From Candidatus Saccharimonadota bacterium (lineage in GTDB: Bacteria > Patescibacteriota > Saccharimonadia > Saccharimonadales > UBA4665), in contig CP064992.1 of the NCBI GenBank assembly GCA_016699935.1, positions 1,080,001 through 1,112,000 of the forward strand: a DNA stretch of 32,000 nucleotides, read 5' to 3'. Shown one piece after another: positions 5,602-30,756 of this stretch; the stretch's first letter is position 1, and the number at the start of each line of letters is the position of its first letter. The position numbers were made by a program, and so were the translations under genes. The notes under the pieces were generated by a model that was given only the letters and a program-made list of their open reading frames with translations, ran no database searches and was not told where the DNA came from.

Positions 5602-6009
5602 TTAGCGTTTAGTGAATTGGCGTTGTTTGCGGGCGCCTTTGAGGCCAAACTTCTTGCGTTCGCGTTCGCGGCTATCGCGGCCGAGCAGTTCAGCGCGGCG
5701 CAATGTTGCCTTGTAGTCCTCATTCTTCTCCACGAGAGCCCTGGCAATCCCAAGACGAATCGCATCGGCTTGACCAGCGTGTCCGCCGCCACTTACAACG
5801 ACAGTTACATCGTAGTCTTTCAGTGGGAGTTCAAGCACAGCAAACGGTTTCTGGATTTCACCTAGCAGCAGTTTGCTCTCGGCAAAATATTCGGCAACTG
5901 GTTTGTTGTTGATAACAACGTTGCCTTTGCCTTTCATGAGTCGCACGCGTGCCGTGGCGCTTTTACGGCGGCCTAGAGCATAGTAGTAGTGTGAGGCTTT
6001 ATCTGCCAT
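5602..6009 (-). CDS. rpsI: 30S ribosomal protein S9
   Basis: Intact 135 aa; YYALGRRKSATARVRL ... ends RKQRQFTKR. Confidence 0.95.
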   Translation of the reverse strand: MADKASHYYYALGRRKSATARVRLMKGKGNVVINNKPVAEYFAESKLLLGEIQKPFAVLELPLKDYDVTVVVSGGGHAGQADAIRLGIARALVEKNEDYKATLRRAELLGRDSRERERKKFGLKGARKQRQFTKR

Positions 6010-6023
6010 TATGCATTCCTTTC

Positions 6024-6160
6024 CTGATTTAGCAGATCACATTGAACAGATGGCAGAAATTGAGCATTTTGCATTTTACATGCACTCGCACCTATGATTC
6101 GCCTGCTACCTGACGTCTGAAAATTTTCTGAAAACTGAAAATTGATACCTGATACCTGCA
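6024..6160 (-). repeat. Heptad-registered intergenic element, copy A (rplM | rpsI)
   Basis: CTGATTTAGCAG...GGCAGAAAT...CTGCTACCTGA...GATACCTGATACCTGCA. It fills the gap between the inferred rplM stop (6161) and the rpsI SD. Confidence 0.85.
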
Positions 6161-6600
6161 TTATTTGCTCCTCTTGAGCGAATAATGCTCTGGTTTTTGG
6201 GGGCGTGGTTATGCTCGGCGCCTGTGTATATTTTCAGGCGAGCGAGACGACCATCGCGCAGTTTATTGCCAGGTAGCATGCCGCGCACAGCTTGCAATAT
6301 TACTTCAGTGCTGTCTTTAGCAACGACGTCTTTGAGCTGTCGCTCACGCAGGCCACCTGGGTAGCCACTGTGGTTGTAATACATTTTATCGGTCATTTTA
6401 GCACCGGTAACCTGAAGCTTGTCGGCGTTAATTACTATGACAAAATCACCACAGTCAATATGACTTGTGAACATCGGCTTACCTTTACCGGTCAGTAGGG
6501 TTGCAACTTGTGTGGCAACTCGACCTAGCGTGGTTTCAGATGCATCCACGACATACCACTTTCGGGTAACCTCGCTTGGTTTTGCAGAATATGTGCTCAT
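6161..6600 (-). CDS. rplM: 50S ribosomal protein L13, C-terminal frame break
   Basis: MSTYSAKPSEVTRKWYVVDA...GYPGG. The listed ORF (6106..6600) reads through into the repeat. Adding one base in the C/A runs near 6178-6186 gives HAPQKPEHYSLKRSK* ending at 6161. Confidence 0.9.
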
Positions 6601-6645: not shown

Positions 6646-7142
6646 TCAGGTGCTTATCGGCTGCCTTTGCAACTCGATTTGCACTTGGGGCTGCCTTTTG
6701 ACAGGGGTGGTTTTAACTTCATCCTGTTCATGACTTTGTTTGACTGGGGCTTTGCTGGCTGCCTTTGCAACCGGTGCTTCCTTAAGATCGTCCACAAAAC
6801 TGACGCGAGCCATTTCAGCATTGTCACCGCGGCGGTTGTCTGTTCGTTCAACGCGTAGGTGGCCGCTACTGCGTCCACTCAACTTCGGGGCAATTTCATC
6901 AAATAGGCGATGTGCTGTTGAAACAGTTTGAAGCAGCAGCAAGTACCTGACGGCGATTATGGAGATCACCTTTTAGCCTTGGTGATGAGTCGCTCGACAT
7001 ACGGTGCAACTGTCTTCGCTTTTGGCAGTGTCGTTACAATTGAGCCATTGATGATGAGCGCCTCAGCGAGACTCTTCACGAGTGCTTCTCGCTGGTCACT
7101 CTCGCGACCAAATTTGGTTCCTTTATATCCGTGACGGTGCAT
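6646..7142 (-). CDS. rplQ: 50S ribosomal protein L17, frame broken twice
   Basis: ATG at 7142 gives [58 protein letters not shown] second frame gives [16 protein letters not shown] 6646..6969 gives [43 protein letters not shown]. Shifts lie near 6970 and 6925-6940. Confidence 0.9.
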
Positions 7143-7143
7143 A

Positions 7144-8083
7144 TTACAACTCCAATTCCGCCAGTTTATCTTTCACTTCGTCGAGTGCCTTGCTGCCAAA
7201 GCCCTTCAGGTCACGAAGTTCGGCATCGCTCAGAGCAAACAAGTCCTGAATGGTGTGAATATCGTTGTTGACGAGAGCGTTAGTTGTCCGGGCAGTAAGG
7301 TTTAGGTCTTCAATACTCGTATTGAGCATGGATCCGTCTTCGACACTTACATCACCGGCTTCATGTACAGCAGCGTTGGCTTCTTGGGCAGGAAGACGAG
7401 TTTTTCCGGCGAGTGCGGCATACTGGTTTACTAAGTATAGCGGCCGCTTCCTCAAACGCATCCCGAGAAGTAATTGTCCCGTCGGTATCAATAGTGAGAC
7501 TCAGTTTGTCGAGATCTATCATCTGGCCTACACGTGTCTTATCAACCTTATAGCGACAACGGACGACCGGACTGAAAATGGTATCAAGCGCAACGAAATC
7601 GCTTTGCTTCTTGGCCGTGCTTTCTTCAATAGTGCGGTAACCGCGACCAGTTTCAACCACGAGGTCAATGATGAGACTTGCCTTGTCGTCGTCTATGGTG
7701 GCAATGACCTGATCGGTACTTACCACCTCTATGTCGGCATTGCCTTGGATATCTTTGCCCGTAATAACACCTTTACCTTTTTTGGTAATCCGAACGGTAT
7801 GGGCATCCTCACCGTAAACACGGAAGCGCAATTGCTTCAGATTAAGCATAATTGCAACCACGTCTTCTTTTACACCTTTAATAGTCGTAAATTCATGGGT
7901 GGCGCCATCAATCTTAAAGCTGGTAATACCAGCACCACTGATACTTGAAAGTAGTACACGGCGAAGACTGTTGCCAAGTGTCATGCCGTAGCCCGTTTGT
8001 AAGGGCTCAATCACAAACGTACTGCTCGTAGCGCTGTGATCGTCGACGGCGACAAGTCCTGGAGTATGAATCATTTTTGACAT
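7144..8083 (-). CDS. rpoA: DNA-directed RNA polymerase alpha subunit, frame broken once
   Basis: N-terminal domain in 7361..8083 ([21 protein letters not shown]). C-terminal domain in 7144..7491 ([25 protein letters not shown]). The junction is near 7432-7442. Confidence 0.93.
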
Positions 8084-8103: not shown

Positions 8104-8721
8104 TTAGCGTGAGTAGTACTCAACAATTAGTTGTTCGTTAATTTCTGGTTCAGCATCTTCACGCAGCGGAATGCCGGTAATTTTCAGCTGGACTTTCTTT
8201 CGGTCTACAGTCTCCCAGTTGGGAGTAGTGCTTGGTGCTGGGCTTGTTTCATCGAGTTTCTTGAAATACTCGCTCGACTTACTATGCTCGCGGAGTTCAA
8301 TGACATCGCCTACTCGGAGTCGGATAGATGGTATATCAACGCGTCGTCCGTTCAGCATGAAGTGACCATGTGTCACAAGCTGGCGAGCAGCGCGTCTTGA
8401 TGGGGCAAAACCTGCACGGTAGACTCCATTATCAAGCCTTCTTTCTAGATACTGAAGCAATGTTGCGCCGGATTGACCGGGTGTGCGTGATGCTTCCGCC
8501 ATGAGGTTAGAGAACTGCTTCTCGAGTAGGCCATAGAGCCGCTTAACTTTCTGCTTTTCCCGCAGCTGCAAAGAATATTGGCTCGGTTTGTTCCGGGTGC
8601 GCGCATTGGCTGCCTGACCGGGCATATTTGTTCGCTTTGCAAGTGCCTTGTGTGCCTTCGGGTGCAAGGCATAGCCTTCACGGCGCGACATTTTAACGAT
8701 AGAACCAGTATCACGTGCCAT
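8104..8721 (-). CDS. rpsD: 30S ribosomal protein S4
   Basis: The true start is MARDTGSIVKMSRREG at 8721 (SD AGGAG upstream). The listed ORF start at 8754 is a repeat-borne extension. Confidence 0.93.
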   Translation of the reverse strand: MARDTGSIVKMSRREGYALHPKAHKALAKRTNMPGQAANARTRNKPSQYSLQLREKQKVKRLYGLLEKQFSNLMAEASRTPGQSGATLLQYLERRLDNGVYRAGFAPSRRAARQLVTHGHFMLNGRRVDIPSIRLRVGDVIELREHSKSSEYFKKLDETSPAPSTTPNWETVDRKKVQLKITGIPLREDAEPEINEQLIVEYYSR

Positions 8722-8734
8722 TATGCATCTCCTT

Positions 8735-8870
8735 CTGGATTTAGCAGGGAGCATTGAGCATTTGGCAGAGATTTGACAGATTGCAATTGGCAGATGTTGC
8801 CACGTGCAGCTAATCTGCTACCTGAAACCTGTGATATTTCTGTTACCTGAAAAATGTTACTTGAAGTTTT
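8735..8870 (-). repeat. Heptad-registered intergenic element, copy B (rpsK | rpsD)
   Basis: CTGGATTTAGCAGGGAGCATTGAGCATTTGGCAGAGAT...CTGCTACCTGAAACCTGTGATATTTCTGTTACCTGAAAAATG. Confidence 0.85.
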
Positions 8871-8887
8871 GAGTGGGTTGTTCACGG

Positions 8888-9289
8888 CTAGACCCTCCTT
8901 GCTTTCTTTGGTCGAACGCCGCCGTGCGGCACACCAGTCACGTCTGTGATGCTTTCTATGGCAATGCCCACTGTCTGCATAGCTCGGATTGCTGCATCTC
9001 GGCCAAGGCCAACGCCTTTGACAAAAACGTTTACCTTGCTGAGGCCATAGCCTTGCTTGGCAAGATTGCCGGCTTTTTCTGCCGCAACCTGAGCTGCATA
9101 TGCGGTACCCTTTTTAGAACCGCGGAACCCGCAGGCTCCTGCGCTGGAAGCTGCCAGTGCACCACCACTTGTGTCTGTTAGCGTAACGATTGTGTTGTTG
9201 AATGTAGCCTGAATATGCAATTGTCCAGCCGAAACGCTGCGCTTTGCCTTCTTTTTCTTGGCTACTGTTGCCGTAGGTGTATCTGCCAT
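8888..9289 (-). CDS. rpsK: 30S ribosomal protein S11
   Basis: Intact 133 aa; LHIQATFNNTIVTLTD...GFRGSKKGT. Confidence 0.95.
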   Translation of the reverse strand: MADTPTATVAKKKKAKRSVSAGQLHIQATFNNTIVTLTDTSGGALAASSAGACGFRGSKKGTAYAAQVAAEKAGNLAKQGYGLSKVNVFVKGVGLGRDAAIRAMQTVGIAIESITDVTGVPHGGVRPKKARRV

Positions 9290-9407
9290 TATGCGCTCCT
9301 CTTGGTCACTGTGGGCGAGAGGTTATAGGTTATAGGTGCTAGGTTGTTTGAAGATCCTTGAACCTTCAACATAGAACCATCAACTTGTTGAAATGCGTAG
9401 TAATTCA
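9290..9407 (-). repeat. Heptamer-array spacer (rpsM | rpsK)
   Basis: GGTTATA GGTTATA GGTGCTA GGTTG on the left faces AACC-word units on the right (GAACCTTCAACATAGAACCATCAAC). Confidence 0.6.
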
Positions 9408-9797
9408 TTAGGTCTTACTTGCTACTTTCTTAGCCGTGCCTCCGACAGTTACTTTCTTGCCCCGTCTAGTGCGTGCATTGGTTTTTGTACGCTGCCCGCG
9501 TGATGGCAAACTGTTCTTATGACGCAGACCACGGTAGCTTCCGATGTCTTTCAGACGTTTGATATTACCGCTAACGATACGCTGCAACTCACCTTCTACG
9601 GTGAGGTGTTCATTGATATAATCTTGAACCCGACCAATTTCGGCATCGGTCAAATCTTTGACGCGAACCGTTGGATCGATCTTTGCTGCCGATAGTATGC
9701 CTTCTGCTGTTTTTGGTCCAATGCCATAAACATAGGTAAGCGCGACCCATACTTGCTTTTCGGCGGGTATTGTCACACCAGATATACGTGCTGCCAT
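9408..9797 (-). CDS. rpsM: 30S ribosomal protein S13
   Basis: Intact 129 aa; MAARISGVTIPAEKQVWVALTYVYGIG. Confidence 0.95.
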   Translation of the reverse strand: MAARISGVTIPAEKQVWVALTYVYGIGPKTAEGILSAAKIDPTVRVKDLTDAEIGRVQDYINEHLTVEGELQRIVSGNIKRLKDIGSYRGLRHKNSLPSRGQRTKTNARTRRGKKVTVGGTAKKVASKT

Positions 9798-10029: not shown

Positions 10030-10279
10030 TCAGTCGGATGAACCAATCCTAGAAAGTTCAACCTTGCGGTAGGTGATCCTACCTTTGGTCAGGTCGTAAG
10101 GCGTCAACTCTACGGTGACCGCGTCGCCAGGGACAATTCGGATAAAATGCTTCCGCATCTTCCCAGCGACATGCGCAATAATCTGATGGCCATTCTCCAA
10201 GTTCGACACGAAACTGAGTACCCGGCAGGGTCTCGACAATTACGCCGTTCAGTTCGATGACTTCCTTATTACTCGCCAT
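10030..10279 (-). CDS. infA: Translation initiation factor IF-1, frame broken once
   Basis: [27 protein letters not shown] (frame of 10079..10306) then [44 protein letters not shown] (10030..10239). There is an extra G near 10196-10204. Confidence 0.9.
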
Positions 10280-10308
10280 GGTTTTTACGTCTTCGTAGTA
10301 TAGCATTT

Positions 10309-11869
10309 TTACGACGAGCTGTAAAGTGTTTTTAAATTATTACTTCTTATTTTGCGAGATTTTAGTAGGTAATCGACGCGGGGTTTTGGCACGTAGCGGA
10401 GCACCTTTGCACCGCCAGTTGTTGCGCTTAAATCATCTCCACCAAGACTGTCGTAGAAGAAGTCATTACGGCTGTATTGGTCATATGTAATCATAAGTGC
10501 CCGAGACTCAACAGCACGAAGGGTTTCCAACGATACGGCCACAAGTATAAGAACACTGGTGCCGCCTAACGCTAACGCAATGTTTTCTGGGACGAACATT
10601 TGTGCCACAATTGGCATGATTGCTAATATCCCCAAACATATTGCACCAAAGAGTGTTATTTTATTGACGGTTTTAGCTAGGTAGCGTTCTGTCTGGGTAC
10701 CGGATCGCACTCCTTCTAAGAATCCGCCCTGCTTCTGAAGGTTCTCGGCAATTTCTTTGCTATTGAACGTAATACTTGTGTAGAAGAAGGTAAACAGAAA
10801 TACCAGCAAGAAGTACGTCAGTGGGTATATATAGGCCTGCCAGCCACCCGCAGCCAAAGTTTGGGCAGTCGGGTTTTGAAACCACGTTACAAGGTTTTGA
10901 CCAAGCTCAGCCCACTTCGGGTTGCTACTAGAAGTCATGAGCTGACCTGCAAGCTTGGAACACTTAAGAATGCGATGGCAAATATAATAGGCACAACACC
11001 CGCTGTGATGAGCTTTACCGGTAGCGTCGTGGTTACTCCACCGTAGGCACGATTTCCCTGAACGCGTTTGGCGTAGTTGATCGTAAGGCGCCTAGCCGCC
11101 TCGTTCAACATGACAACTATCCACGTCACCAATATGACCACTGCCAAGATGGCGAGCGCATACCAGAACGATCGGGCATTAATGGGTAGCTCGCGTCCGA
11201 AAATCTCCCATTATTGGTCTTATCGTATATAGATGATGCCAATTGGCTAATAGTACCCGGCAAGGCGCTCACAATTCCCACTGTGATTAGGAGCGAAATG
11301 CCGTTGCCAACCGATTTCTCGGTGACAAGTTCACCCATCCACATCAGCAGCATAGAGCCGCCGGTAAGTGCAGCGACCATAAGAACCCATTGCCATAAAG
11401 ACGTATTTGCCGTTATATCGCCTATGCCGCCAACTTGCTGCGCATACTGACGAACGAGGTAGATCGATCCGATAGCCTGTATGATTGCCAGGGAAAGGTA
11501 AGCATCCGCGTATACTGGTTGATTCGCTTCTGTCCGGACTCACCATCTTTACGCATTTTTCAAGCTTTGGAAGAGCCTTGGTGAGTAGCTGCATGATAAT
11601 ACTAGCGTTGATGTACGGGCCAAGTCCGGCAATCATGATAGAGAAATTAGCAAGTGCGCCGCCACTCAGTACGTTTATGAAACTCAGTAGCTGCGGTGTA
11701 TCCTGCGATGAAAACAGGTTTGTCAGCACTTGTTTTAGCGTTTCCGGATCGGCCAAAGGCACTGGTATGTGCGCTAGGATACGAAAAATCAGCAATATTG
11801 CGAGTACGCCAAAAATGCGCTTTCGCATATCACGCGTGTAAATGATGCTCCAATAATTTTCCAGTTCAC
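10309..11869 (-). CDS. secY: Preprotein translocase SecY, frame broken at least 4 times; start uncertain
   Basis: Pieces 11331..11828, an unlisted frame at about 11380-11555 (KMRKDGESGQKRINQYTR..), 11126..11380, 10935..11147 and 10309..10938. Breaks lie near 11556 (A-run), 11490 (C-run), 11211 and 10945. A possible GTG start at 11869 follows AAGAGGGG but is out of frame with the ATG at 11828. Confidence 0.88.
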
Positions 11870-12615: not shown

Positions 12616-12837
12616 CTACGCGCCATCACTTAGTCTCCTTCTTGGGTGCTGCTTTCTTGGCGGCTGGCTTCTTGGCTGGGGTTGCTTTCTTCGTCTCGGA
12701 TGCTTTTTAACAGGGCAGCTTTCACCTCGGGCTGTTTTTGAAGATTCTTCGCTATCGCTCAGAATGACAGCTGGTTTTGCTACTTTCTTCTCTTGATTCA
12801 TGACTTGTGATTCTTGATTCTTGTGTTTTGTGGTCAC
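12616..12837 (-). CDS. Small basic K/R/P/A-rich ORF in the slot where rpmD (L30) usually sits; frame ambiguous
   Basis: The listed frame ends PRRRKQPQPRSQPPRKQHPRRR. An alternative frame ends ETKKATPAKKPAAKKAAPKKETK*, which resembles the K/A/P tails of L22, L23 and L24 here. It is not L30-like. Confidence 0.3.
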   Translation of the reverse strand: MTTKHKNQESQVMNQEKKVAKPAVILSDSEESSKTARGESCPVKKHPRRRKQPQPRSQPPRKQHPRRRLSDGA

Positions 12838-13787: not shown

Positions 13788-14327
13788 TTATTTATCCTTT
13801 CCTGACTTACCAGACTTGCGCAGGATGCGTTCGCCTTCGTACTTGATACCCTTGCCCTTGTAAGGCTCCGGTTTCTTGAGGGCACGGATTTCTGCAGCAA
13901 CTTGTCCGACTTGCTGTTTGTCGATACCGCTGACGGTCATTTTATTCTGCTCGACGAGGACTTGTACCCCCAGAGGAATTTTGTAAATGACATCGTGGCT
14001 AAAGCCAATATTAAGCTTAAGGTCAGTGCCCTGCATCGCAACGCGGTAGCCAACACCATTGAGCTCGAGCTGTTTGCTAAAGCCCTGGGTGACACCCTGT
14101 ACCATGTTATTGATAAGTGCCCGCATGAGGCCATGGGCGGCTCGGATCTTTGGCATATCATTCGCCCGGGTTACCGTGAGGACGCCGTCCTCTACTTTGA
14201 CTGTAATACCCTCTAGCTGAGGGGTCTCCAGATTACCTTTGGTCCCAGACACTTTGATAGCGTCTGAGTCGACAGTGATTGTCACACCGCTGGGTATCAA
14301 GATGGGTAGTTTTCCTACTCGACTCAT
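13788..14327 (-). CDS. rplF: 50S ribosomal protein L6
   Basis: Intact 179 aa; MSRVGKLPILIPSGVTITV. Confidence 0.95.
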   Translation of the reverse strand: MSRVGKLPILIPSGVTITVDSDAIKVSGTKGNLETPQLEGITVKVEDGVLTVTRANDMPKIRAAHGLMRALINNMVQGVTQGFSKQLELNGVGYRVAMQGTDLKLNIGFSHDVIYKIPLGVQVLVEQNKMTVSGIDKQQVGQVAAEIRALKKPEPYKGKGIKYEGERILRKSGKSGKDK

Positions 14328-14427
14328 TTCTTTCCTTTCGTATTTAGAATTTCAGAATTACAGAATTGCAGAGGAAAAAACTTTCTAGCGATTCTCGATT
14401 CTGAAATTTCGTAATTCATAATTCTCC
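14328..14427 (-). repeat. Heptamer/octamer-array hairpin spacer (rpsH | rplF)
   Basis: GAATTTCA GAATTACA GAATTGCA on the left faces CGATTCT CGATTCT GAAATTT CGTAATT CATAATT on the right. The arms are approximately reverse-complementary. Confidence 0.65.
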
Positions 14428-14829
14428 TTAGTACACCTGACAGATTAGTTCGCCGCCGACACCTTGGGCTTTGGCTTCTTCGCCAGTCATCAAGCCCTTG
14501 CTGGTGCTGATGATGAGGACGCCACGACCACGTTTTACCTGAGGAACTTCGCGGGCATTGGTATAAGTACGACGACCAGGTTTGCTGAGGCGCTTGATTT
14601 CGGTAATTTTTGCATTTTCACCATCGAGGTTGATAGTGATATGCAGGCGTTTACCGACACTCAGGTCCTCTGTAGTGACATCATGCAAAAAGCCGTTGTT
14701 GCGAAGACTAATTGCAACATTCTCTTTGATTTTGCTATGCGGGAGACTGACTTCGTTTTTGCCAACGGCAATTGCGTTGCGCACACGGGTCAGCATGTCT
14801 GAGATAGGATCAGTAGTGGTTACGCTCAT
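14428..14829 (-). CDS. rpsH: 30S ribosomal protein S8
   Basis: The true start is MSVTTTDPISDMLTRVRNA at 14829. The listed start at 14862 is a repeat-borne extension. Confidence 0.94.
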   Translation of the reverse strand: MSVTTTDPISDMLTRVRNAIAVGKNEVSLPHSKIKENVAISLRNNGFLHDVTTEDLSVGKRLHITINLDGENAKITEIKRLSKPGRRTYTNAREVPQVKRGRGVLIISTSKGLMTGEEAKAQGVGGELICQVY

Positions 14830-14843
14830 ACGCTTACTCCTTT

Positions 14844-14980
14844 CTGATTTAGCAGAGAGCATTGAGCATTTGGCAGAAATGTAGCAGATTTCATGTAGCA
14901 GACAGGACTACATGCAGCAACCTTGCTACCTGACACCTGTGAAATGTGTGCTATGTGAGAAATGATACCTGATACATGGA
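14844..14980 (-). repeat. Heptad-registered intergenic element, copy C (rpsN | rpsH)
   Basis: CTGATTTAGCAGAGAGCATTGAGCATTTGGCAGAAAT...CATGTAGcagacaggaCTACATG...TTGCTACCTGACACCTGTGAAATG. Confidence 0.85.
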
Positions 14981-14995
14981 GTGATGACGACTTCA

Positions 14996-15265
14996 TTACC
15001 AGCTCGCTTTCGTTACACCAGGGATCTCTCCCTTGCTTGCATGTTCGCGGAAAGACAACCGGCTCAGGCCGAATTGGCGCATGTAGGCATGTGGCCTGCC
15101 CGTTTCGATGCAGCGGTTCTTACGGCGTGTTGGTGAAGAATTGCGAGGCAATTTTGCCAAACCTTCGTAGTCACCAAGCTCCTTAAGCTCTTTGCGCTTC
15201 GCGGCGTACTTGTCTATCATCTTGATGCGCTTTTTATCACGCGCGAGGTTCGATTTCCTAGCCAT
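14996..15265 (-). CDS. rpsN: 30S ribosomal protein S14 (long, 89-aa form)
   Basis: Intact; [24 protein letters not shown]...[11 protein letters not shown]. Confidence 0.93.
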
Positions 15266-15362
15266 TATTGTGCTCCTTTCAATCGCGGCATGACGAATGA
15301 CCTATGACCAGAGACGGTTATAACGCCAGCGGATACTTCATTCTTCATACTCCATACATCAT
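15266..15362 (-). repeat. Heptamer-array spacer (rplE | rpsN)
   Basis: CATGACG AATGACC TATGACC on the left faces CTTCATT CTTCATA CTCCATA CATCATT on the right. Confidence 0.6.
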
Positions 15363-15971
15363 TCATTTCGCATTCTCCTTTTCAAACGGCATACCAAATT
15401 TCTGTAATAGCGCCTTGCTATGAGACTTGTCTTCACATTTCACGACGAAAACGGCTTGCATACCGTGAGGTGTCGTGGTTTCTTCGAATGTAAGCTCAGG
15501 AAACACACTTTGGTCGGTCAGACCAAGACTAAAGTTGCCCTGCTTGTCAAAAGCTTTGTTATTCACACCGTGGAAGTCACGCAGCCGTGGCAACACAATA
15601 TTTATGAGGCGATCCATAAACTCATACATTCGCTCGCCGCGCAGGGTCAGCTTGAGGCCGATCATATTTCCTTCACGCAATTTGAATCCAGCGATCGAGT
15701 TCTTTGCAACCGTTTCGACAGGTTCTTGGCCGGTGACTTTACGAAGTGTGTTCTTCGCTGCCTCTATGGTTTTCTTGTCTTCTTTTGCTTTGCCAAGACC
15801 GACGTTTATGACGATCTTTTCAAGCTTTGGCACCTCATGTGCATTGGTAAGGCCTAGTTCCTTTAGGAGCTCAGCTGCAAATTTTTCATTGTATTCTGCC
15901 TTGAGACGTGCAACATATGGAGTTGCTTTTTTCTTTGGGGCTGGCTTCTTGGTTGTAGTCGCTTCTGCCAT
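15363..15971 (-). CDS. rplE: 50S ribosomal protein L5
   Basis: Intact 202 aa; VPKLEKIVINVGLG. Confidence 0.95.
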   Translation of the reverse strand: MAEATTTKKPAPKKKATPYVARLKAEYNEKFAAELLKELGLTNAHEVPKLEKIVINVGLGKAKEDKKTIEAAKNTLRKVTGQEPVETVAKNSIAGFKLREGNMIGLKLTLRGERMYEFMDRLINIVLPRLRDFHGVNNKAFDKQGNFSLGLTDQSVFPELTFEETTTPHGMQAVFVVKCEDKSHSKALLQKFGMPFEKENAK

Positions 15972-16374: not shown

Positions 16375-16743
16375 TTATAGTACCTCCGGAGCTAGGCTAA
16401 TAATCTTGGCGTAGCCCATATCACGCAGTTCTCTTGGTACGGGTCCGAATATACGCGTTCCTTGGGGTTCTTATCGTCACCAATGATGACTGCGGCATTG
16501 TCATCGAATTTGATAGTGCTGCCGTCTTTGCGCTTGATTTCTTTCTTGGTACGAACGACCACGGCGCGAACGACTGACTTTTTCTTGACGTTACCAGTCG
16601 GGCTGGCTTGCTTGACGGTAGCAGTGATGACATCACCAACCTTAGCGTAGCGCTTGCGGGAAGCCACCAAGAACTCGGATGCAGAGGATTTCCTTGGCAC
16701 CGCTGTTGTCGCAGACGACAAGACGGGTTTCTTGCTGAACCAT
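16375..16743 (-). CDS. rplN: 50S ribosomal protein L14, frame broken twice
   Basis: Starts [27 protein letters not shown] at 16743. The middle piece is [18 protein letters not shown]... The tail is [28 protein letters not shown]. Shifts lie near 16661 and 16460. Confidence 0.92.
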
Positions 16744-16890
16744 TAGAAGGCTCCTTTCAGTCGCGGAAGCATGGAGTATGGAGTATGAATTATGCCAGCA
16801 GCTCCGTAGCTGTTTGTTTTCCATTCATGATTCATGATTCTTTCTCCTTGTCTGTCACCCCAGGAACTTCCACTGCTTTTTCGACGTGCT
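16744..16890 (-). repeat. Heptamer-array hairpin spacer (rpsQ | rplN)
   Basis: CATGGAG TATGGAG TATGAAT TATG on the left faces CCATTCA TGATTCA TGATTC on the right. A small central hairpin is present (CAGCAGCTCCGTAGCTG). Confidence 0.65.
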
Positions 16891-17333: not shown

Positions 17334-17452
17334 CTAAAGGCTCCTTTCGGTCGTCACAAGGCTTTGGGCTGAGAGCTGAGACCATAGTTCACTAGAGCCA
17401 ACTCTGCCCTTTGCCCCTTGCCCTTTGCTCTGATAAGATACGAGGTTTTTCA
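17334..17452 (-). repeat. Heptamer-array spacer (rplP | rpmC)
   Basis: GGCTTTG GGCTGAG AGCTGAG on the left faces GCCCTTT GCCCCTT GCCCTTT GCTCTG on the right. Confidence 0.6.
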
Positions 17453-17866
17453 TTACACGCCCTCCTTCACAACAAATTTTGTCTTGACTGGCAGCTTGTG
17501 GCCAGCGAGACGCATTGCTTCTCGAGCAGTTTCCTCGCTAACACCCTGCATTTCAAACATAATGGTGCCAGGTCGGACTTTAGCAACGAAAAACTCAGGG
17601 CTACCTTTGCCACTACCCATTTTGACATCGAGCGGCTTGCGGGTGACTGGCGTATGAGGGAATATGCGGATCCAGATTTTGCCACCACGCTTGATGTAAC
17701 GAGTCATGGCCTGTCTTGAGGCCTCAATCTGTCGGCTTGTAATACGCTCGTGACCTTGTGCTTGGAGCGCGTATTCGCCGTAGGCAATATAGTTCCCGGC
17801 CGTCGCCACGCCACGGATCTTGCCCTTGCGAACTTTCCGGAATTTGGTTCTTTTCGGCAATAATAT
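17453..17866 (-). CDS. rplP: 50S ribosomal protein L16; non-ATG start
   Basis: ..[18 protein letters not shown]. At the position where sister genes have ATG (SD plus 7 nt) the codon is ATA (17866). A TTG follows at 17860. The listed start at 17899 is a repeat-borne ATG. Confidence 0.9.
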
Positions 17867-17880
17867 TAGAAAGCTCCTTT

Positions 17881-18010
17881 CTGATTTAGCAGAAAGCATT
17901 CAGCATTTGGCAGAAATATAGCAGATGGCATGTGGCAGATGTTGCCACGCGCAGCTAACCTGCTACCTGACACCTGTGAAATTTCTGCTACCTGAAAAAT
18001 GATACCTGCA
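17881..18010 (-). repeat. Heptad-registered intergenic element, copy D (rpsC | rplP)
   Basis: CTGATTTAGCAGAAAGCATTCAGCATTTGGCAGAAAT...GTGGCAgatgtTGCCAC...CTGCTACCTGACACCTGTGAAATTTCTGCTACCTGAAAAATGATACCTGCA. Confidence 0.9.
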
Positions 18011-18030
18011 TAGTGGGACGACGCTGTCAT

Positions 18031-18660
18031 TTATTTGTCCCCCTTATATATCCAAACTTTGACACCAATAATGCCTGCACCGGGCCAGTTGGCACGAGCT
18101 GCAGCATAATCAATGTCGGCACGTATGGTATGTAAAGGCACAGAACCAACCGCTTCTTTCTCACGACGGCTCATTTCGGCACCATTTAAGCGCCCAGCAA
18201 CTTCTATACGGACACCTTTTGCACCCGCACGCATCGTTGCAGCGCTGGCGCTCTTGATGGCGCGGCGGAAACTCATGCGACGCTCAAGCTGATGAGCGAT
18301 GTTCTCGGCGACAAGTTTTGCATAGAGGTCAGGTTTTTTGACTTCTTCTATGTTGACGCGGGCTGGTACTCCATAAACCTTTTCAATAGCAGCTTTGAGC
18401 TCCTGCGCTCCTTGACCACCGCGACCGATGACTACGCCAGCCTTAGCCGTTGCAATCGTCACCGTTACGAGGTTTGGTGAGCGCTCAATATCTACTTTGT
18501 TGATAGCGCCGCGAGAGCCAAATTTGTCCTGGATTAGTTTGCGAACTTGCAAGTCCTGCGCAAGATAACCAGCATACTGGCGCTTGCTTACAAACCACTT
18601 GCTCCGCCAATCCTTATTGGCCTGCAGACGCATAGAAATAGGATTTACCTTCTGTCCCAT
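18031..18660 (-). CDS. rpsC: 30S ribosomal protein S3
   Basis: Intact 209 aa; MGQKVNPISMRLQANKDWRSKWF. Confidence 0.95.
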   Translation of the reverse strand: MGQKVNPISMRLQANKDWRSKWFVSKRQYAGYLAQDLQVRKLIQDKFGSRGAINKVDIERSPNLVTVTIATAKAGVVIGRGGQGAQELKAAIEKVYGVPARVNIEEVKKPDLYAKLVAENIAHQLERRMSFRRAIKSASAATMRAGAKGVRIEVAGRLNGAEMSRREKEAVGSVPLHTIRADIDYAAARANWPGAGIIGVKVWIYKGDK

Positions 18661-19049
18661 TACTTTGCCTCCTTCTTATCCGCGGCCTTGGCAGCTGCAG
18701 GTTTTTTAGCAGGACGTTGCTCGCCATCGACGAGTACGCGAATATGTGATGAACGCTTCATGTAAGGCAAGGCGCGGCCCATGGCTGCAGGGCGGAAACG
18801 CTTCATGCGAGGCCCGTGATTGACAGTGATTTCGGTAATGACAAGGGTATCTGCCTTGTAGTTGTGGTTGTGAGCGGCGTTAGCCTGTGCACTCTTGATT
18901 GTTTTGAGAACAGATAGTGCGGAGCGCCGTGGCGTGTGTTCGAGGATAACGATAGCATCGGCGACGGTGCGACCACGCACGAGCGCTGCCACAGCAGCCA
19001 CCTTACGTGGGCTTAATCGAACGCCTTTAGACTCGGCTTTTACAGACAT
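18660..19049 (-). CDS. rplV: 50S ribosomal protein L22
   Basis: The true start is MSVKAESKGVRLSPRKV at 19049. The listed start at 19082 is a repeat-borne extension. Confidence 0.93.
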   Translation of the reverse strand: MSVKAESKGVRLSPRKVAAVAALVRGRTVADAIVILEHTPRRSALSVLKTIKSAQANAAHNHNYKADTLVITEITVNHGPRMKRFRPAAMGRALPYMKRSSHIRVLVDGEQRPAKKPAAAKAADKKEAK

Positions 19050-19063
19050 CAGAAAGCTCCTTT

Positions 19064-19206
19064 CTGATTTAGCAGTGAGCATTGAGCATTTGGCAGAAAT
19101 TTGGCAGGTTGCATTTGGATGGTGACTTCGGTTGCAGCCTGTCTGCTACTTGAAACCTGTAAAATTTCTGCTACCTGAAAAATGCTACCTGAAAAATATG
19201 AAACCT
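19064..19206 (-). repeat. Heptad-registered intergenic element, copy E (rpsS | rplV)
   Basis: CTGATTTAGCAGTGAGCATTGAGCATTTGGCAGAAAT...CTGCTACTTGAAACCTGTAAAATTTCTGCTACCTGAAAAATGCTACCTGAAAAAT. Confidence 0.9.
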
Positions 19207-19214
19207 GTTTCATC

Positions 19215-19487
19215 TTATTTCCCCTTCGCTAACTTACCGCCGTGACTGCGGAACTTACGGGTAGGGCTAAACTCACCCAGTTTATGGCCAACCATGTTTT
19301 CGGTGACAAATACTGGTACGTGCACCTTGCCGTTATGGACAGCAAAGGTTTTACCGACAAAGTCTGGAGCAATCGTACAGCTACGCGCCCAAGTTTTTAT
19401 GATGGTGCGATCCTCTGGGCCTTGGCCAGCGACTTTTTTCGCGAGCTTCGGATCGATAAACGGCCCTTTCTTCAGTGAACGACTCAT
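19215..19487 (-). CDS. rpsS: 30S ribosomal protein S19
   Basis: Intact 90 aa; [15 protein letters not shown]. Confidence 0.95.
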
Positions 19488-19644
19488 CTGACGCTCCTTT
19501 CAGTCGCTTCAATATGCAATTTACAATTCTCAATTTTCATTACATCTGCGACTTGCGATTTGCGGTTTACAGCTGCATTGCTAATTGGTAATTGATAATT
19601 CATTGGTAATTGGTAATTGGTAATTGGTAATTGGAGCATCGCGA
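19488..19644 (-). repeat. Heptamer-array spacer with (TAATTGG)n tandem repeat (rplB | rpsS)
   Basis: CAATATG CAATTTA CAATTCT CAATTTT on the left faces TAATTGG TAATTGA TAATTCA TTGG then 4 x TAATTGG (about 19583-19637) on the right. Confidence 0.8.
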
Positions 19645-24451: not shown

Positions 24452-24475
24452 GGTATAAAAACCTCCGGTTTTTAA

Positions 24476-24503
24476 TAGTTAGTAGTTGGTAGTTGGTAGT
24501 TAG
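24476..24503 (-). repeat. Tandem heptamers TAGTTAG TAGTTGG TAGTTGG TAGTTAG in the rpsJ leader
   Basis: Direct reading of the sequence; adjacent to the SD hairpin at 24457-24473. Confidence 0.8.
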
Positions 24504-24658
24504 GAAAGCCTAAAAACAACTCGTGCAAACGGCCGGCTTCACCCGGTTTGGCTTTGTAACACCTTACGAATTCACCTGGGAACGCGCACGGCTTTTATTC
24601 AAAGCTACTGGTTTACAAGAGTAATGGTACCACATAACCAGTACGAGCGCAAAACTAG

Positions 24659-26530: not shown

Positions 26531-26740
26531 AATAGTGCTTCGCTTTGTAATGAGACAAAACCTCGCGGTTTTTTCTCATCGCGCCGGCAAAAAGACGTAA
26601 CTTTTTGTCGGGCTGCTCTTTTTCCTTCGAGCTACTAAAACGAGATCCTTTCTTTGGTTAGGTTAATTGTTAATAGTTGTTCACGCGGTCCATATTACTG
26701 CAACATACTACAGCAACGCCCTCACGCGAGATACACTGTA

Positions 26741-26782: not shown

Positions 26783-27136
26783 CTATTCGTATTTAAGCTT
26801 TAGATCGAGTTTGTCAGCGATTTGAAAAATCCATTTTTCCATGCGTACTTGTTGGGCGTCGCGAGCCACATTATCTTGTAGGATATCTTCAATGCGTTTC
26901 ATGTGGCCATCCAGTATCTGGAAAATTTTGTTTATTTTTGCATCGATTTCATCAAACCGTTTATCGTGTTCCTCGAGTTTGCTTTCAACGCGGAACAGTC
27001 GAGCATCCATAGCGTCGAACCGTTGATCCATAGCGTCGAACCGTTGATCCATAGCGTCGAACCGCTCGGAAACCATCGTGGTTATATCAGAAATAGCTCC
27101 GATTACATCATCCAGATCGGTTGGCTTCTTGGGCAT
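26783..27136 (-). CDS. Small coiled-coil protein with RFDAMDQ heptad repeats
   Basis: Intact 117 aa; ..SERFDAMDQRFDAMDQRFDAMDARLFRVESKLEEHDKRFDEIDAKI.. Confidence 0.6.
   Translation of the reverse strand: MPKKPTDLDDVIGAISDITTMVSERFDAMDQRFDAMDQRFDAMDARLFRVESKLEEHDKRFDEIDAKINKIFQILDGHMKRIEDILQDNVARDAQQVRMEKWIFQIADKLDLKLKYE
27005..27067. repeat. 3 x 21-bp tandem repeat (ATCCATAGCGTCGAACCGTTG) inside the coiled-coil ORF
   Basis: Two perfect units plus a third that diverges at its end. Confidence 0.9.
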
Positions 27137-27154: not shown

Positions 27155-29243
27155 CTATTTAGAGTTCTTGGCGATGATGGCTTCGGCGACGTTGTTTGGC
27201 ACGTCGGCGTAGTGGTCTAGTTCCATGCTGGAGCTGGCCCGGCCCTGGCTCATTGAGCGCAAGTTCGTCGTGTAACCAAACATCTCTCCAAGTGGAACGA
27301 ACGCTGTTATTTCCTTGATCCCAGACGAAAGATCTTCCATCGATTCAATCCGACCGCGCTTGCTATTTAGGTCACCTATGACGTCACCCATGAAACTTTC
27401 TGGTGTGACAACGACGACTTTCATAACTGGCTCGAGCAGTACTGGACCGGCTTTTTTGAAGCCATCCTGGAAGCCCATAGAACCAGCGATGCTGAAAGCC
27501 ATTTCAGAGGAGTCAACTTCGTGGTAACTACCATCGTACAACTCAACTTTGACGTCGACGACCGGGTAACCAGCTATCACACCATTGCTCATAGCTTCTT
27601 CTATACCCTTGCGGACGGCTGGGATGTATTCACTCGGCACCACACCACCTTTGATAGAGTTGATCCATTCAAAGCCGGCACCCTGTTCGTTGTGGCTGAG
27701 GCAAGAAGCCAGACGTCACCGTACTGACCGCGGCCACCACTCTGGCGGACAAACTTGCCCTGGGCTTCGACAGCATCTTTGCGGATGGTTTCTCGGTAGG
27801 CCACCTGCGGCTGGCCGATGTTTGCTTCAACGCTAAACTCGCGCTTCATGCGGTCAACCAAAATTTCGAGGTGTAGCTCACCCATACCAGATATAATCGT
27901 CTGGCCAGTTTCATCATCTACGCGCACTCGGAACGTTGGGTCTTCTTCGGCTAGGCGCTGGAGGGCTAGACTCATTTTCTCTTGATCGGCTTTGGTCTTT
28001 GGCTCAATCGCAATCGATACTGGTGGATCTGGGAAAGTAATGTTTTCGAGTTTAATCGGGTGAGCTGGGTCACATAGTGTGTTGCCAGTGGTTGTTCCCT
28101 TGAGCCCGACTATAGCGGCGATGTCGCCCGCCACCACTTCGGTGACGTCTTCGCGCTTGTCGGCTTGCATACGAACGATACGTCCGACGCGTTCTCTTTC
28201 ACCAGTGGAACTATTCAGCACATAGGAACCTGCTTGGAGCGTACCGGAGTAGACACGGAAATACGCGAGCTTACCGACAAATGGGTCGGTCGTGATTTTG
28301 AAAGCTAGACCCGAAAGAGGCTCTGTTTCGCTATGTTTGCGCTCAATTTCTTCGCCAGTTTTGGGGTGTACGCCCCAGGTGTTGCTACAGTCACTTGGTG
28401 CTGGCAGGTAGTCATTGACCATGTCGAGCACTTTTTCGACGATGACTCCGCGGCCATCACCACCGGTGACAGCATAGAACTTGCTACTTAAAACAGCACT
28501 ACGGATGGCTTGTTTGATTTCGTCAACTGAGAGACCTTCTTCGCCGACCTCAAAGTACTTTTCCAGAATAGCTTCGTCTTCGGCAACGGCATTTTCGATG
28601 AGTAGACTGCGATACTTTTTGACCTGCTCCATCATATCGGCTGGGATTTCGCCCTCTACAAGTTCGTGGTCGTGAAATTCGGTGTAGGTGTAGGCCTTCA
28701 TAGTGACAAGGTCGACAACGCCATTGATGCTCTGTTCGAAACCAATTGGTAGGTGAACCGGGAAGGCACGTTTGCTCAAGCGGTGGTGAATGCTGTCGAG
28801 GCTCTTGTAGAAATCGCCACCGGTTTGGTTGATTTTGTTGATGAAACAGATGCGTGGTACGCCGTATTTGTCGGCTTGACGCCAAACAGTTTCACTTTGG
28901 CTTTCGACACCCATCTTGCCGTCGAAGACGACACAGGCACCGTCGAGCACGCGGAGACTGCGTTCCACCTCGGCCGTGAAGTCTATATGGCCGGGAGTGT
29001 CGATGATGTTGATCTGGTGACCTTCCAAAAACAGGTCACAGCAGCCGAAACGATGGTGATGCCACGCTCACGTTCTTGCTCCATCCAGTCGGTGGTCGTG
29101 CCTCCTTCGTGAACAGCACCAATTTTGTGCTTTAGACCCGTACGATACAGAATTCCTTCTGTCGTAGTCGTTTTACCCGCATCGATATGGGCAATAATGC
29201 CGATATTGCGGATGTCTTTCATTAGTACTTTCTTGTCTGCCAT
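27155..29243 (-). CDS. fusA: Elongation factor G, frame broken twice
   Basis: 28983..29243 ([14 protein letters not shown]), 27601..29028 ([10 protein letters not shown]...) and 27155..27643 (C-terminal domains). Shifts lie near 29020-29030 and 27700-27715. Confidence 0.96.
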
Positions 29244-29255
29244 TTTGTCTCCTTA

Positions 29256-29287
29256 GAGTTAAGAGTTATGAGATAAGAGATAAGATC
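29256..29287. repeat. Inverted-repeat arm (downstream side) bracketing the four-helix-bundle gene
   Basis: GAGTTAAGAGTTATGAGATAAGAGATAAGA. This is the reverse complement of 29654-29683 at 28 of 30 positions and is built of GAGNTAA heptads. Confidence 0.9.
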
Positions 29288-29653
29288 TTATTTCGTACCA
29301 TTTGTTTTATTGATTAAACCTGTCAGTAGCTTGTGGCATTCTATGCTTGCATCGTCTAGACTTTGGTGTCTATCTTGCAAAATATAACCAACATCTTTTG
29401 CGACTAAGAGTTGCGCTTGTACTTCGTGCAATGACGCTCGTGCCATATCGTAAAAATGTGCTCGATCAGCCATCGTACGTCGACCAAAACCTTCAGCAAT
29501 ATTTGAAACTAATGAGACTGAAGCTCTTCGTATCTGGTTGGTTAGACCAAAGATTTCATCTCGTGGAAACTCTTTTGTAATCCTATAAATGTCTAGAGTC
29601 AGAGCGTGGGATTTCTGCCAAGCTATGAGGTCGCGAAATGTGTGGATACTCAT
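29288..29653 (-). CDS. Four-helix-bundle protein of the '23S rRNA intervening-sequence protein' family (Avd-like fold)
   Basis: Intact 121 aa; FRDLIAWQKSHALTLDIYRITKEFPRDEIFGLTNQIRRASVSLVSNIAEGFGR...FYDMARASLHEVQAQLLVAKDVGYI is the typical family signature. Confidence 0.85.
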   Translation of the reverse strand: MSIHTFRDLIAWQKSHALTLDIYRITKEFPRDEIFGLTNQIRRASVSLVSNIAEGFGRRTMADRAHFYDMARASLHEVQAQLLVAKDVGYILQDRHQSLDDASIECHKLLTGLINKTNGTK

Positions 29654-29683
29654 TCTTAACTCTTATCTCATATCTCTTAACTC
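29654..29683. repeat. Inverted-repeat arm (upstream side) bracketing the four-helix-bundle gene
   Basis: TCTTAACTCTTATCTCATATCTCTTAACTC, starting immediately after the start codon position. Confidence 0.9.
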
Positions 29684-29696
29684 TACTAAACGTAGT

Positions 29697-30176
29697 TTAG
29701 CCGCGGGCGAAGTGCGCGAAGGCGCGGTTAGCGTCGGCCATGCGGTGCGTATCTTCACGCTTCTTGACGGCTGAACCTTGATTGTTGTAAGCATCCATTA
29801 GCTCGGCAGCGATGCGGTCAGCCATGCTCATGCCCTTGCGGGAACGGCAGGCGGCGACGAACCACATGGTAGTCAGGTGATTTTGGCGCTGGCCTTTGAC
29901 TTCAAATGGAATCTGATAGTTGGCACCACCAACGCGGCGAGAGCGAGTCTCGACGTTCGGGCGTATATTGCCCATGGCTTGGTCAAATACGTCTAGTGGG
30001 TTTTCGACTTTCAGTTTGTCGGCAGCTTTTTGCATACCGGTATAGACTAGCCGCTCGGCGACTTGCTTTTTGCCGTCGCGCATAACGCGGTTGATGAGAC
30101 GCTGCACCGGCACACTGTTGTATATACGGTCAGCTGGTATGTCTCGAACTAGTGAGGCAGTTACTTTCCTAGGCAT
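29697..30176 (-). CDS. rpsG: 30S ribosomal protein S7
   Basis: The true start is MPRKVTASLVRDIPADRIYNS at 30176. The listed start at 30212 is a repeat-borne extension. Confidence 0.94.
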   Translation of the reverse strand: MPRKVTASLVRDIPADRIYNSVPVQRLINRVMRDGKKQVAERLVYTGMQKAADKLKVENPLDVFDQAMGNIRPNVETRSRRVGGANYQIPFEVKGQRQNHLTTMWFVAACRSRKGMSMADRIAAELMDAYNNQGSAVKKREDTHRMADANRAFAHFARG

Positions 30177-30189
30177 TAGAGGCTCCTTT

Positions 30190-30329
30190 CGGAGAGATTT
30201 AGCATTGAGCATTGAGCATTTTGCAGAAATTTAGCAGTTTGCATTTGGCAGAAATTGCTGATTGCGATATGTCTGCTACCTGATACCTGTAAAATTTCTG
30301 CTACCTGAAAATTGCTACCTGAAAAATGG
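30190..30329 (-). repeat. Heptad-registered intergenic element, copy F (rpsL | rpsG)
   Basis: ..GATTTAGCATTGAGCATTGAGCATTTTGCAGAAAT...CTGCTACCTGATACCTGTAAAATTTCTGCTACCTGAAAATTGCTACCTGAAAAATG. Confidence 0.88.
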
Positions 30330-30342
30330 AAGGGCGCAGTCA

Positions 30343-30756
30343 TTACTTGCTCTCCTTTTTGGCGCCGTATTTACTACGACCCTGTTTGCGGTTTTGGACG
30401 CCTTGGAGGTCTAGGGCGCCACGAACGATGTGATAACGCACACCTGGTAAGTCCTTGACACGACCGCCACGGATCATGACGACAGCGTGTTCTTGCAGGT
30501 TATGGCCTTCTCCGCCGATGTAGGCCCAGACTTCATAGCCATTGCCGAGTCGCACACGGGCAACCTTACGCAGAGCGGAGTTTGGTTTCTTTGGTGTTTT
30601 GGTGGTGACCTTGACGCACACGCCGCGCTTGAATGGTGCGGGTTTTTCGTAGTGTTTGGTCTTTAGGTTGTTGGTAACACGCATGAGCGCCGGGCTTTTG
30701 GTCTTCGTTTTGACCTTTGTCCGAGGCTTGCGCACCAGTTGGTCAATGGTAGGCAA
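30343..30756 (-). CDS. rpsL: 30S ribosomal protein S12 (TTG start)
   Basis: Intact 137 aa; (TTG)[11 protein letters not shown]...; SD GAGAAAGGGG upstream. Confidence 0.95.

Follow-up and report, generated by a model that had tools for sequence, protein, structure and literature searches.

The ribosomal-protein operons of a Candidatus Saccharimonadota genome contain a repeated element that lies between genes and holds an open reading frame (ORF) leading from one gene to the next. The stretch of DNA analysed here, referred to as the window, comprises 32,000 nt of contig CP064992.1 and contains the str, S10, spc and alpha ribosomal-protein operons, all on its minus strand, with a G+C content of 48.7%. 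Within these operons there are six copies of an imperfect palindrome built of degenerate 7-nt units, each located between the stop codon of one gene and the start codon of the next. Each of the six is open in exactly one of its six frames, on the transcribed (minus) strand, over 50–56 codons. The frame begins on or beside the upstream gene's stop codon, mostly in the form TAATG, and ends on or beside the downstream gene's start codon. This bridging frame is a feature that was not seen in the sequence-only reading by which the repeat was first described. It is the openness and the position of the frame that are conserved, and not the sequence of the peptide. [quoted passage not shown]

How general is the bridging frame? 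We took operon spacers from curated junction lists for the window and seven related Saccharimonadales contigs, automatic stop-to-stop detection of spacers being too noisy, and found that 35 of 42 are bridged. When the interiors of the spacers were shuffled with their ends kept, 6.5 ± 2.1 bridged spacers were expected, and none of the 300 trials gave more than 13. For a single element the chance of an open frame lies between 0.02 and 0.23, and the other five frames always hold stop codons. Since several unrelated sequence families show the bridging property, it is not accounted for by the six copies' common ancestry. A profile of ten of the peptides gave 39 matches in 1.84 billion representative proteins, of which about 35 are 43–68 aa in length and match end-to-end; thus gene callers routinely annotate the bridging frames. 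This would account for dozens of ~50-aa ‘hypothetical proteins’ in the Saccharimonadales, with ~35 clusters for the six-copy family alone.

The six-copy family and its junctions

The six copies belong to a single family. A repeat search of the window recovered six 144-nt copies in ungapped register, 65–83% identical to the reference, and alignment of the six using MAFFT gave a mean column identity of 75% with one 3-nt gap, in copy F. A 22-position core pattern is found at exactly six sites in the window, and at none in 100 shuffles. All three approaches agree with the six co-oriented copies of the initial description. The heptad register is also well founded: in 11 of 11 family copies examined the identity is 0.39–0.44 at a lag of 7 nt and 0.35–0.41 at a lag of 14 nt, compared with ~0.22 at other lags. 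Coding genes give the usual lag-3 signal, and their lag-7 identity is 0.22–0.25. In all six copies the orientation is the same, the spacing to the Shine–Dalgarno (SD) sequence GAAAGGAG is the same and the centre is variable, as had been read by eye. The left and right arms are reverse complementary as first described, with 91% of cells paired in register and only 25–39% when the partner is slid.

The element is longer than the ~135 nt originally assigned to it. The true unit begins with the start codon located at the stop of the preceding gene and extends as far as the next gene's start, a length of 150–171 nt that includes a variable loop of 30–45 nt containing no gene. The body is an imperfect palindrome, and in the outer ~20 nt (the 5′ leader codons and the 3′ SD tail) the match is only a loose one, CUCC...GGAG. 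It had been thought that the copies differ by substitution only. This is correct for the core; outside it the 5′ ends differ by whole codons, and the only indel among the six is an in-frame insertion of 3 nt that precedes the SD in copy F.

All six copies are on the minus strand. Copy A, between rplM and rpsI (6009–6161), is the most diverged; it has an SD-like GGAAAGGAA at 6016–6024, and its 50-codon mini-ORF has TAATG at both ends. The overlap is masked in the raw ORF list by a frameshift in rplM, located in a CCCCCAAAAA run, and the corrected rplM ends at the TAA of TAATG. Copy B (rpsK/rpsD, 8721–8885) contains a mini-ORF of 54 codons that starts with a GTG lying 3 nt past the rpsK stop; the SD is at 8729–8736, and the mini-ORF stop overlaps the rpsD ATG as TAATG. 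The 56-codon mini-ORF of copy C (rpsN/rpsH, 14826–14996) overlaps its neighbours as TAATG at the 5′ end and ATGA at the 3′ end, with an SD at 14837–14844. In copy D (rpsC/rplP, 17866–18030) the ATG of the mini-ORF lies 1 nt past the rpsC stop (TAAATG), the SD appears as CTCCTT(TC) on the plus strand at 17874–17881, and the stop TAA overlaps the start position of rplP, which reads ATA. Copy E (rpsS/rplV, 19049–19213) has a 54-codon mini-ORF whose ATG lies 2 nt past the rpsS stop (TAAGATG) and whose TGA stop overlaps the rplV ATG (TGATG); its SD, at 19057–19064, is inside a local 9-bp hairpin, UCAGAAAG-GAG-CUUUCUGA. Lastly, in copy F (rpsL/rpsG, 30176–30343) the mini-ORF has 55 codons and overlaps both of its neighbours as TAATG, with an SD at 30183–30190. 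Sequestration of the SD by the 5′ end of the element was considered as a separate feature and was not used: the SD is usually in some local structure, and the partners differ among the copies.

The element was not matched to any curated RNA family, and the initial description had recognised none. The covariance models of Rfam 15 gave no match at gathering thresholds in the whole window, and at E ≤ 10 over positions 17700–19400 the matches were at chance level only, scoring 13.9–17.9 bits compared with thresholds of 50–85. Plasmid, phage and viral collections contain nothing similar to the element, and neither strand of the elements is enriched in promoter- or terminator-like signals. We found no description in the literature of intercistronic mini-ORF repeats of this kind in Patescibacteria.

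Related contigs, designated by L-numbers, were gathered through homologues of ribosomal protein S3, which in the window is 88–95% identical to proteins labelled Candidatus Saccharimonadales or Saccharibacteria, identifying the organism as a TM7/CPR (candidate phyla radiation) bacterium. The genomes compared are 75–83% identical in rpsC. Junctions that are occupied in the window are empty in L004, L007, L012, L018, L019 and L034. Thus rpsK/rpsD has no insert in L004 and L007, rpsN/rpsH is empty in L007 and L019, and rpsS/rplV is empty in L004, L007, L012, L014 and L018. The empty site corresponding to copy F in L034 and L036 reads AGCAAGTAATG followed directly by CCACGG. In L007 none of the four junctions examined is filled, and rpsC/rplP reads ...GGGGGACAAATAAATGTTG. 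Three contigs that are ~92% identical in rpsC exhibit three different occupancy states. There is an ortholog of copy C, of the same family, in L016 (7848–8018), and an orthologous copy to D in L018–L024 (P0123).

The family is not restricted to the junctions filled in the window. Further copies are found at junctions that the window either has empty or does not cover: rplC/rplD (L003 and L016), rplX/rplE (L028) and, outside the ribosomal operons, the junction between the two genes for the transketolase subunits (L026) and a site that precedes a VirB4-like gene (L029), with a partial copy at groES/groEL (L030). Every one of the 13 distinct full-length sites has the same orientation as the genes beside it. 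Among genome representatives a strict DNA pattern picked up a single genuine additional copy, together with two chance matches in Bacteroidales coding sequence, and it found nothing in the JGI metagenomes; a relaxed pattern gave four further family sites and three chance or partial matches. A sister family in L016 has two copies with ~99% identity over the interval between AAATG and the SD tail and with flanks that are unrelated, and therefore the moving unit is ‘start codon ... SD’. The variable occupancy, the presence at other junctions and this closely matched pair all support the earlier suggestion of a MITE-like repeat.

At the junctions of copies D and C, other genomes have homologous 5′ ends and SD tails with different heptad words in between. 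Variant arm words are CATTGAA/CAACGAT in L004 (2313–2471 and 5230–5388) and CAATTAA/AATCGCC in L018 (7880–8041). Many heptads have apparently changed in parallel, pointing to a concerted, unit-wise evolution of the arms. A different kind of rearrangement is found in L025 (357–1296), where rplV, a family copy and rplP come one after another in that order and the essential rpsC is missing. The probable cause is collapse of the assembly, or recombination, between copies at rplV/rpsC and rpsC/rplP. It is a warning that repeats of the element can corrupt marker-gene operons in metagenome bins, and such repeats would account for assembly breaks and chimeras in the marker-gene operons used for phylogenomics of the CPR.

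Translation through the element as the favoured explanation

We propose that small, non-autonomous palindromic repeats of degenerate 7-nt units colonise the stop–start junctions in the tight operons of Saccharimonadales. Ribosomes finishing an upstream ribosomal-protein gene would re-initiate on the mini-ORF and traverse the two arms of the palindrome by way of some 50 sense codons, and this translation would melt structure in the mRNA and keep the RNA covered. With the RNA kept covered, Rho-type polarity should not arise and none of the spacer should be exposed. The ribosomes would terminate at the next start codon, where re-initiation would be supported by the element's own SD, and in this way translational coupling and stoichiometric expression could survive an insertion of 150–170 nt. 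Left untranslated, an insertion of this size should be harmful, because the efficiency of coupling falls steeply with the distance between stop and start, and untranslated operon RNA invites Rho-dependent polarity (PMC12548453). Members of the family would survive only at stop–start junctions, and only in the orientation in which the frame is open and the mRNA hairpin is weak. In a reversed copy all frames would contain stop codons and the mRNA hairpin would be far stronger, so that the uniform orientation would be the result of selection. A role as a translation insulator or enhancer had been suggested earlier; the element does indeed carry the SD of the downstream gene, but the open frame linking the two genes had been overlooked.

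A number of points weigh against this explanation. We infer translation of the mini-ORF, and the same is true of the coupling function, the effect on the downstream gene and the mechanism of transposition. Seven of the 42 spacers are unbridged, as is one metagenomic copy (L032), and because they share ancestry the six window copies taken alone are weak independent evidence for conservation of the frame. Elements at a given junction have 5′ ends in common across genomes, with differing arms (MTASSH... at rpsC/rplP, and MKS.SL... at rpsN/rpsH), which argues for vertical descent with rapid heptad-wise internal turnover, alongside or instead of transposition. Given the degree of divergence in rpsC between the genomes compared, some of the presence and absence could be due to old losses. 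There is no transposase or other mobility gene in the window, and neither clean terminal inverted repeats (TIRs) nor a uniform target-site duplication (TSD) was found. TAATG flanks copies A and F, the empty site of the latter ending in ...TAATG, and the other copies share only (A/G)TG or GATG; the test for a TSD is confounded because a start codon is required at both ends. Lastly, the explanation supplies no cause for the 7-nt period.

If it is correct, some wider consequences would follow. Few regions of bacterial DNA are as conserved and compact as the ribosomal-protein operons, and insertions with fast turnover there in a CPR lineage are unexpected. They would illustrate a route by which selfish DNA can become harmless, in which a translated, meaningless cistron keeps ribosomes moving between essential genes. 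The elements would also provide natural material on translational coupling, bearing on re-initiation versus RNA unfolding and on the tolerance of distance.

Strand-specific folding and alternative explanations

We have compared the folding of the two strands, with z scores calculated relative to dinucleotide shuffles. On the mRNA (minus) strand z is −1.63 for copy D and −2.79 for copy E, and over the set of 11 copies it extends from +1.4 to −2.8; RNAalifold gives a consensus of 23 pairs at −8.2 kcal/mol. The antisense (plus) strand of copy D folds with −57.4 kcal/mol (z = −3.98), and 10 of the 11 copies have z between −2 and −5.7, with the antisense ~3–22 kcal/mol more stable than the sense in those ten. 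The antisense consensus is −25.8 kcal/mol, with 33 pairs. There is also a perfect core of 8–10 bp, GCAGAAAU/AUUUCUGC. Over the 33 pairs in the 11 copies there are 291 Watson–Crick cells; a further 40 are G·U on the antisense strand (and thus A·C mismatches in the mRNA), and four are the reverse. Covariation on the antisense strand is marginal, at 0.147 compared with 0.124 ± 0.012, a value reached by 21 of 500 shuffles. The minus-strand transcript, for which a long hairpin was originally suggested, thus folds poorly, and it is the plus strand that folds far better. With covariation only marginal, the notion of a conserved RNA structure loses ground on essentially the terms that the sequence-only reading had set for it.

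The asymmetry between the strands is as expected if structure is selected against in a translated message. Another possibility is that it reflects a hairpin required for mobility on the other strand, formed either in single-stranded DNA as a substrate for an HUH-type enzyme, in the style of IS200/IS605 or REP-RAYT, or in an antisense RNA. This idea concerns the mode of movement and is compatible with a mobile palindrome that is tolerated through translation; the features on the mRNA side would then be secondary adaptations. The markedly greater stability of the plus strand and its conserved G·U pairs are as expected for such a hairpin, the uniform orientation suits a strand-specific, single-strand transposition, and the mobile unit is sharp-ended without clear TIRs or TSDs. 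Yet the 32-kb window contains no HUH or RAYT gene, analysis of GC skew gave no direction of replication, no promoter- or terminator-like signals accompany either strand of the elements, and selection against structure in the translated mRNA explains the asymmetry equally well. We regard a functional hairpin on the antisense strand as possible, if unlikely.

Could the elements have been generated in place? Slippage on heptamers together with quasi-palindrome correction might create such arrays locally, with the similarity between the six copies arising through gene conversion. In many bacteria the most frequent long simple repeats are heptanucleotide ones, which have been ascribed to slippage of the polymerase (PMC4679880). 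Every junction possesses a heptad word of its own, the 5′ ends at a given junction are shared across genomes while the arms of the elements differ, and some copies start with a duplicate of the first 7 nt of the downstream gene (ATGAAAA for rpmC, and ATGAGTG for rpsH in L018). However, slippage alone does not make matched inverted arms together with an SD tail, and a local origin is difficult to reconcile with one 150-nt family of fixed architecture at ≥10 junctions, including non-ribosomal operons in other genomes, or with ~99%-identical copies in unrelated flanks. We consider it improbable.

A role in mRNA processing or stability, in which a minus-strand hairpin is cut by RNase III/E or blocks exonucleases so as to segment the mRNA, was among the functions first suggested for the element, and we now find it decidedly improbable. 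The arms are complementary in register and there is the perfect core, a neighbouring cassette (discussed below) has a near-perfect 32-bp stem of the type that is excised from 23S rRNA, and co-transcribed palindromes of the Correia and ERIC types are known to be cleaved by RNase III/E (PMC10969869). Against this, the mRNA of most copies folds no better than its dinucleotide shuffles, with a consensus of around −8 kcal/mol compared with −26 kcal/mol for the antisense, the imperfections in the mRNA strand are systematically A·C, and covariation is marginal. The same junctions are empty in relatives, so that processing there must be dispensable, and the conserved bridging frames would be left unaccounted for.

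The peptides themselves show no sign of constraint. Variable columns are distributed over the first, second and third codon positions as 27/46, 27/46 and 23/46, the median dN/dS over 55 pairs is 1.00, similar to the values of 0.85 and 0.79 for the two out-of-frame controls, and lag-3 periodicity is absent from the elements. The peptide thus appears to be an unconstrained by-product. A real family of ~50-aa small proteins, duplicated between the ribosomal-protein genes and co-expressed with them, is highly improbable and was rejected on the dN/dS and periodicity: all copies keep an intact frame with start, SD context and stop, gene callers predict the ORFs, and the motifs QVAEI.QVSGSR and AKFLPNA.CSLLN recur across ~35 clusters in public data, but the motif conservation mirrors the palindromic nucleotide arms, the period is 7 nt and not 3 nt, unrelated sequences do the same job at other junctions and relatives dispense with the element altogether.

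Other junction cargo, the PF05635 cassette and known elements

Nearly all the other spacers of these operons consist of different 7-nt-periodic, two-armed sequences that have the same SD tail and bridging frame, again on the minus strand. The element at rplB/rpsS (19484–19639) has arms of CCAATTA and AATTGNA, including a true tandem array (CCAATTA)4, a 51-codon bridging mini-ORF and the SD tail GACTGAAAGGAGC, with an ortholog in L018. That at rplP/rpmC (17334–17453) has arms of AGGGCAA and GCTCTCA and a 39-codon bridging mini-ORF, and related ‘MKNFVF’ copies are found in L016. At rplE/rpsN (15265–15366) there is a member of an ‘MNDVW’ family with a 33-codon bridging mini-ORF, of which L016 has copies at rplW/rplB and rplE/rpsN. 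Bridging mini-ORFs of 31 and 39 codons, respectively, are present at rpsH/rplF (14324–14419; arms GAATTAn and AATTCTG) and rpsM/rpsK (9289–9408; arms GGTTnnn and AACCTAT). The heptad element at rpsQ/rplN (16743–16835) has a mini-ORF that ends in TAATG, and its link to the upstream stop is probably hidden by a frameshift in rpsQ.

Heptads are also found outside the bridged spacers. The sequence CTAACTA CCAACTA CCAACTA CTAACTA lies directly before the SD of rpsJ (24462–24504, minus strand) in the manner of a 5′ leader, and CAAGAAT CAAGAAT CACAAGT CATGAAT follows rpsE (12787–12823, minus strand).

A second family of mini-ORFs has no heptads. It encodes the motif REKSSQSxRIHFAxLRDEKNRxVCL, contains a hairpin GAGAAAAACC...GGTTTTGTCTC, and recurs at different junctions. 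It is present in the window upstream of tuf (26550–26625, minus strand), and in L004 (70–183 and 4854–4961), L016 (1408–1521), L010 (7836–7940), L014 (564–674) and L030. In the last of these the groES/groEL junction (880–1080) is a compound of a partial copy of the six-copy family, scoring best in the antisense direction, with a REKSSQS-type sequence, and one frame is open into groEL. Between the ribosomal-protein genes of relatives there are also larger inserted ORFs, of 57–127 aa, that have no heptad period. These are found in L010 (9828–10001, 11246–11596 and 13298–13558), L015 (7222–7539 and 7817–8116), L013 (451–630) and L016 (2905–3699), and a Pfam search of them gave no families. Since TAATG-type overlaps also mark the two ends of the larger ORFs, the junctions take translated cargo of many kinds.

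One junction in the window contains a recognizable protein gene. At rpsG/fusA (29254–29685, minus strand) there is a cassette encoding a 121-aa PF05635 ‘23S rRNA intervening sequence protein’ (IVP; E = 1e-35). The gene is flanked by 32-nt inverted repeats that are 94% complementary and built of heptads (TAGAGTT AAGAGAT ATGAGAT AAGAGTT), and the right repeat adjoins the SD of fusA. The cassette is found at the same junction in L034–L039, where the IVP is 87% identical, the right repeat is identical and the left repeat is identical except for its first base. The database match P0125 is 99% identical to the IVP. Many IVP homologues are located on very short contigs, as expected for multi-copy DNA flanked by repeats. 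In L027, a metagenomic contig from an unrelated GC-rich bacterium (1540–2000; JGI Ga0315268_10051521, 63% G+C), an IVP gene of low G+C content, encoding a four-helix bundle, follows a liv-type ABC transporter gene and is preceded by the tandem heptads GCATTTA GCATTTG GCATTTA GCATTTA GCAG, the same words as in the arms of the six-copy family. This suggests a link between IVP genes and heptad repeats that crosses phyla.

In having heptad inverted repeats followed by the SD of the next gene, the IVP cassette of the window resembles the six copies. They differ from it in the lack of a gene in the loop, in their heptad words and in having far less perfect arms. Classical intervening sequences (IVSs) are located within 23S rRNA and are excised by RNase III. 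The comparison hints that the hairpin-only elements may be miniatures of IVP cassettes. On a broader view, which we consider doubtful, there would be an unrecognised class of operon-dwelling mobile ‘coupling relay’ elements, in which the hairpin-only copies derive from PF05635 cassettes, perhaps not confined to Saccharimonadales and extending to other bacteria. Such a relay would comprise a start codon, stop-free palindromic arms of heptads, an SD and a stop, and might pass ribosomes between essential genes. If this were true, the PF05635 family, long an enigma, would gain a part in how heptad-repeat elements spread or are maintained.

How does the element relate to known repeats? The nearest analogue is the RPE, a palindrome of ~150 bp that persists by being in frame (Ogata et al. 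2000, summarised in PMC10969869). Both are palindromic repeats of ~100–150 bp in a reduced-genome bacterium, comprise several sequence families, and keep an open frame that encodes a passenger peptide. Yet the RPEs insert within protein-coding genes as in-frame fusions, whereas the elements described here are separate mini-cistrons between genes, having their own start, SD and stop that overlap the neighbours and a 7-nt period, in an unrelated phylum, so that homology in sequence is not expected.

The element is similar to MITEs in being shorter than ~500 bp, in having no transposase gene, in being multicopy (six in 32 kb, with others in further genomes) and in its insertion polymorphism among relatives. 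It is likewise similar to Correia/NEMIS, ERIC, BOX, RUP and REP/BIME repeats, as small, multicopy, co-transcribed imperfect palindromes of variable presence. [quoted passage not shown] The Correia and ERIC repeats have no fixed junction position, built-in SD or conserved frame.

Heptamer direct repeats beside start codons occur in cyanobacteria (STRR) and in Beggiatoaceae (TAACTGA), and their function is not known (PMC4679880). Like these, the six copies have a 7-nt period and a site just upstream of start codons, the corresponding spacers of relatives are empty, and a role in translation has been suggested. The STRR and TAACTGA arrays are tandem repeats of a single word, with stop codons in the forward orientation, whereas the six copies have degenerate heptads in two inverted arms, with a variable centre and no in-frame stops. 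The elements would provide a new angle on the abundance of 7-nt repeats beside start codons, and on the role of the PF05635 IVS proteins. The TAATG and ATGA overlaps at the ends of the mini-ORFs, with an SD just before the restart, are those of coupling by termination and re-initiation (PMC12548453). Here, however, coupling would not pass directly from gene to gene but would run by way of an inserted cistron that has no function.

Some genes in the window are not intact. Frameshifts have split or truncated fusA (27155–29243), secY (10309–11828), infA (10079–10306), rplQ and rpoA (6646–8083) and the 3′ end of rplM (6150–6200), with at least one of the shifts in a homopolymer run. Intact counterparts of the split genes are present in relatives (fusA encodes 695 aa in L034). 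This pattern in essential genes suggests homopolymer sequencing errors in a noisy assembly, and not pseudogenes. The occurrence of ATA in place of ATG as the start of rplP, 3′ to copy D, possibly has the same cause. No tRNA or tmRNA was found in the window. Between fusA and tuf there is an ORF of 117 aa (26783–27136, minus strand) that is coiled-coil-like, at a position where L034 has a GIY-YIG gene. Within it three tandem 21-nt repeats (27005–27067) encode a repeated DAMDQRF heptapeptide.

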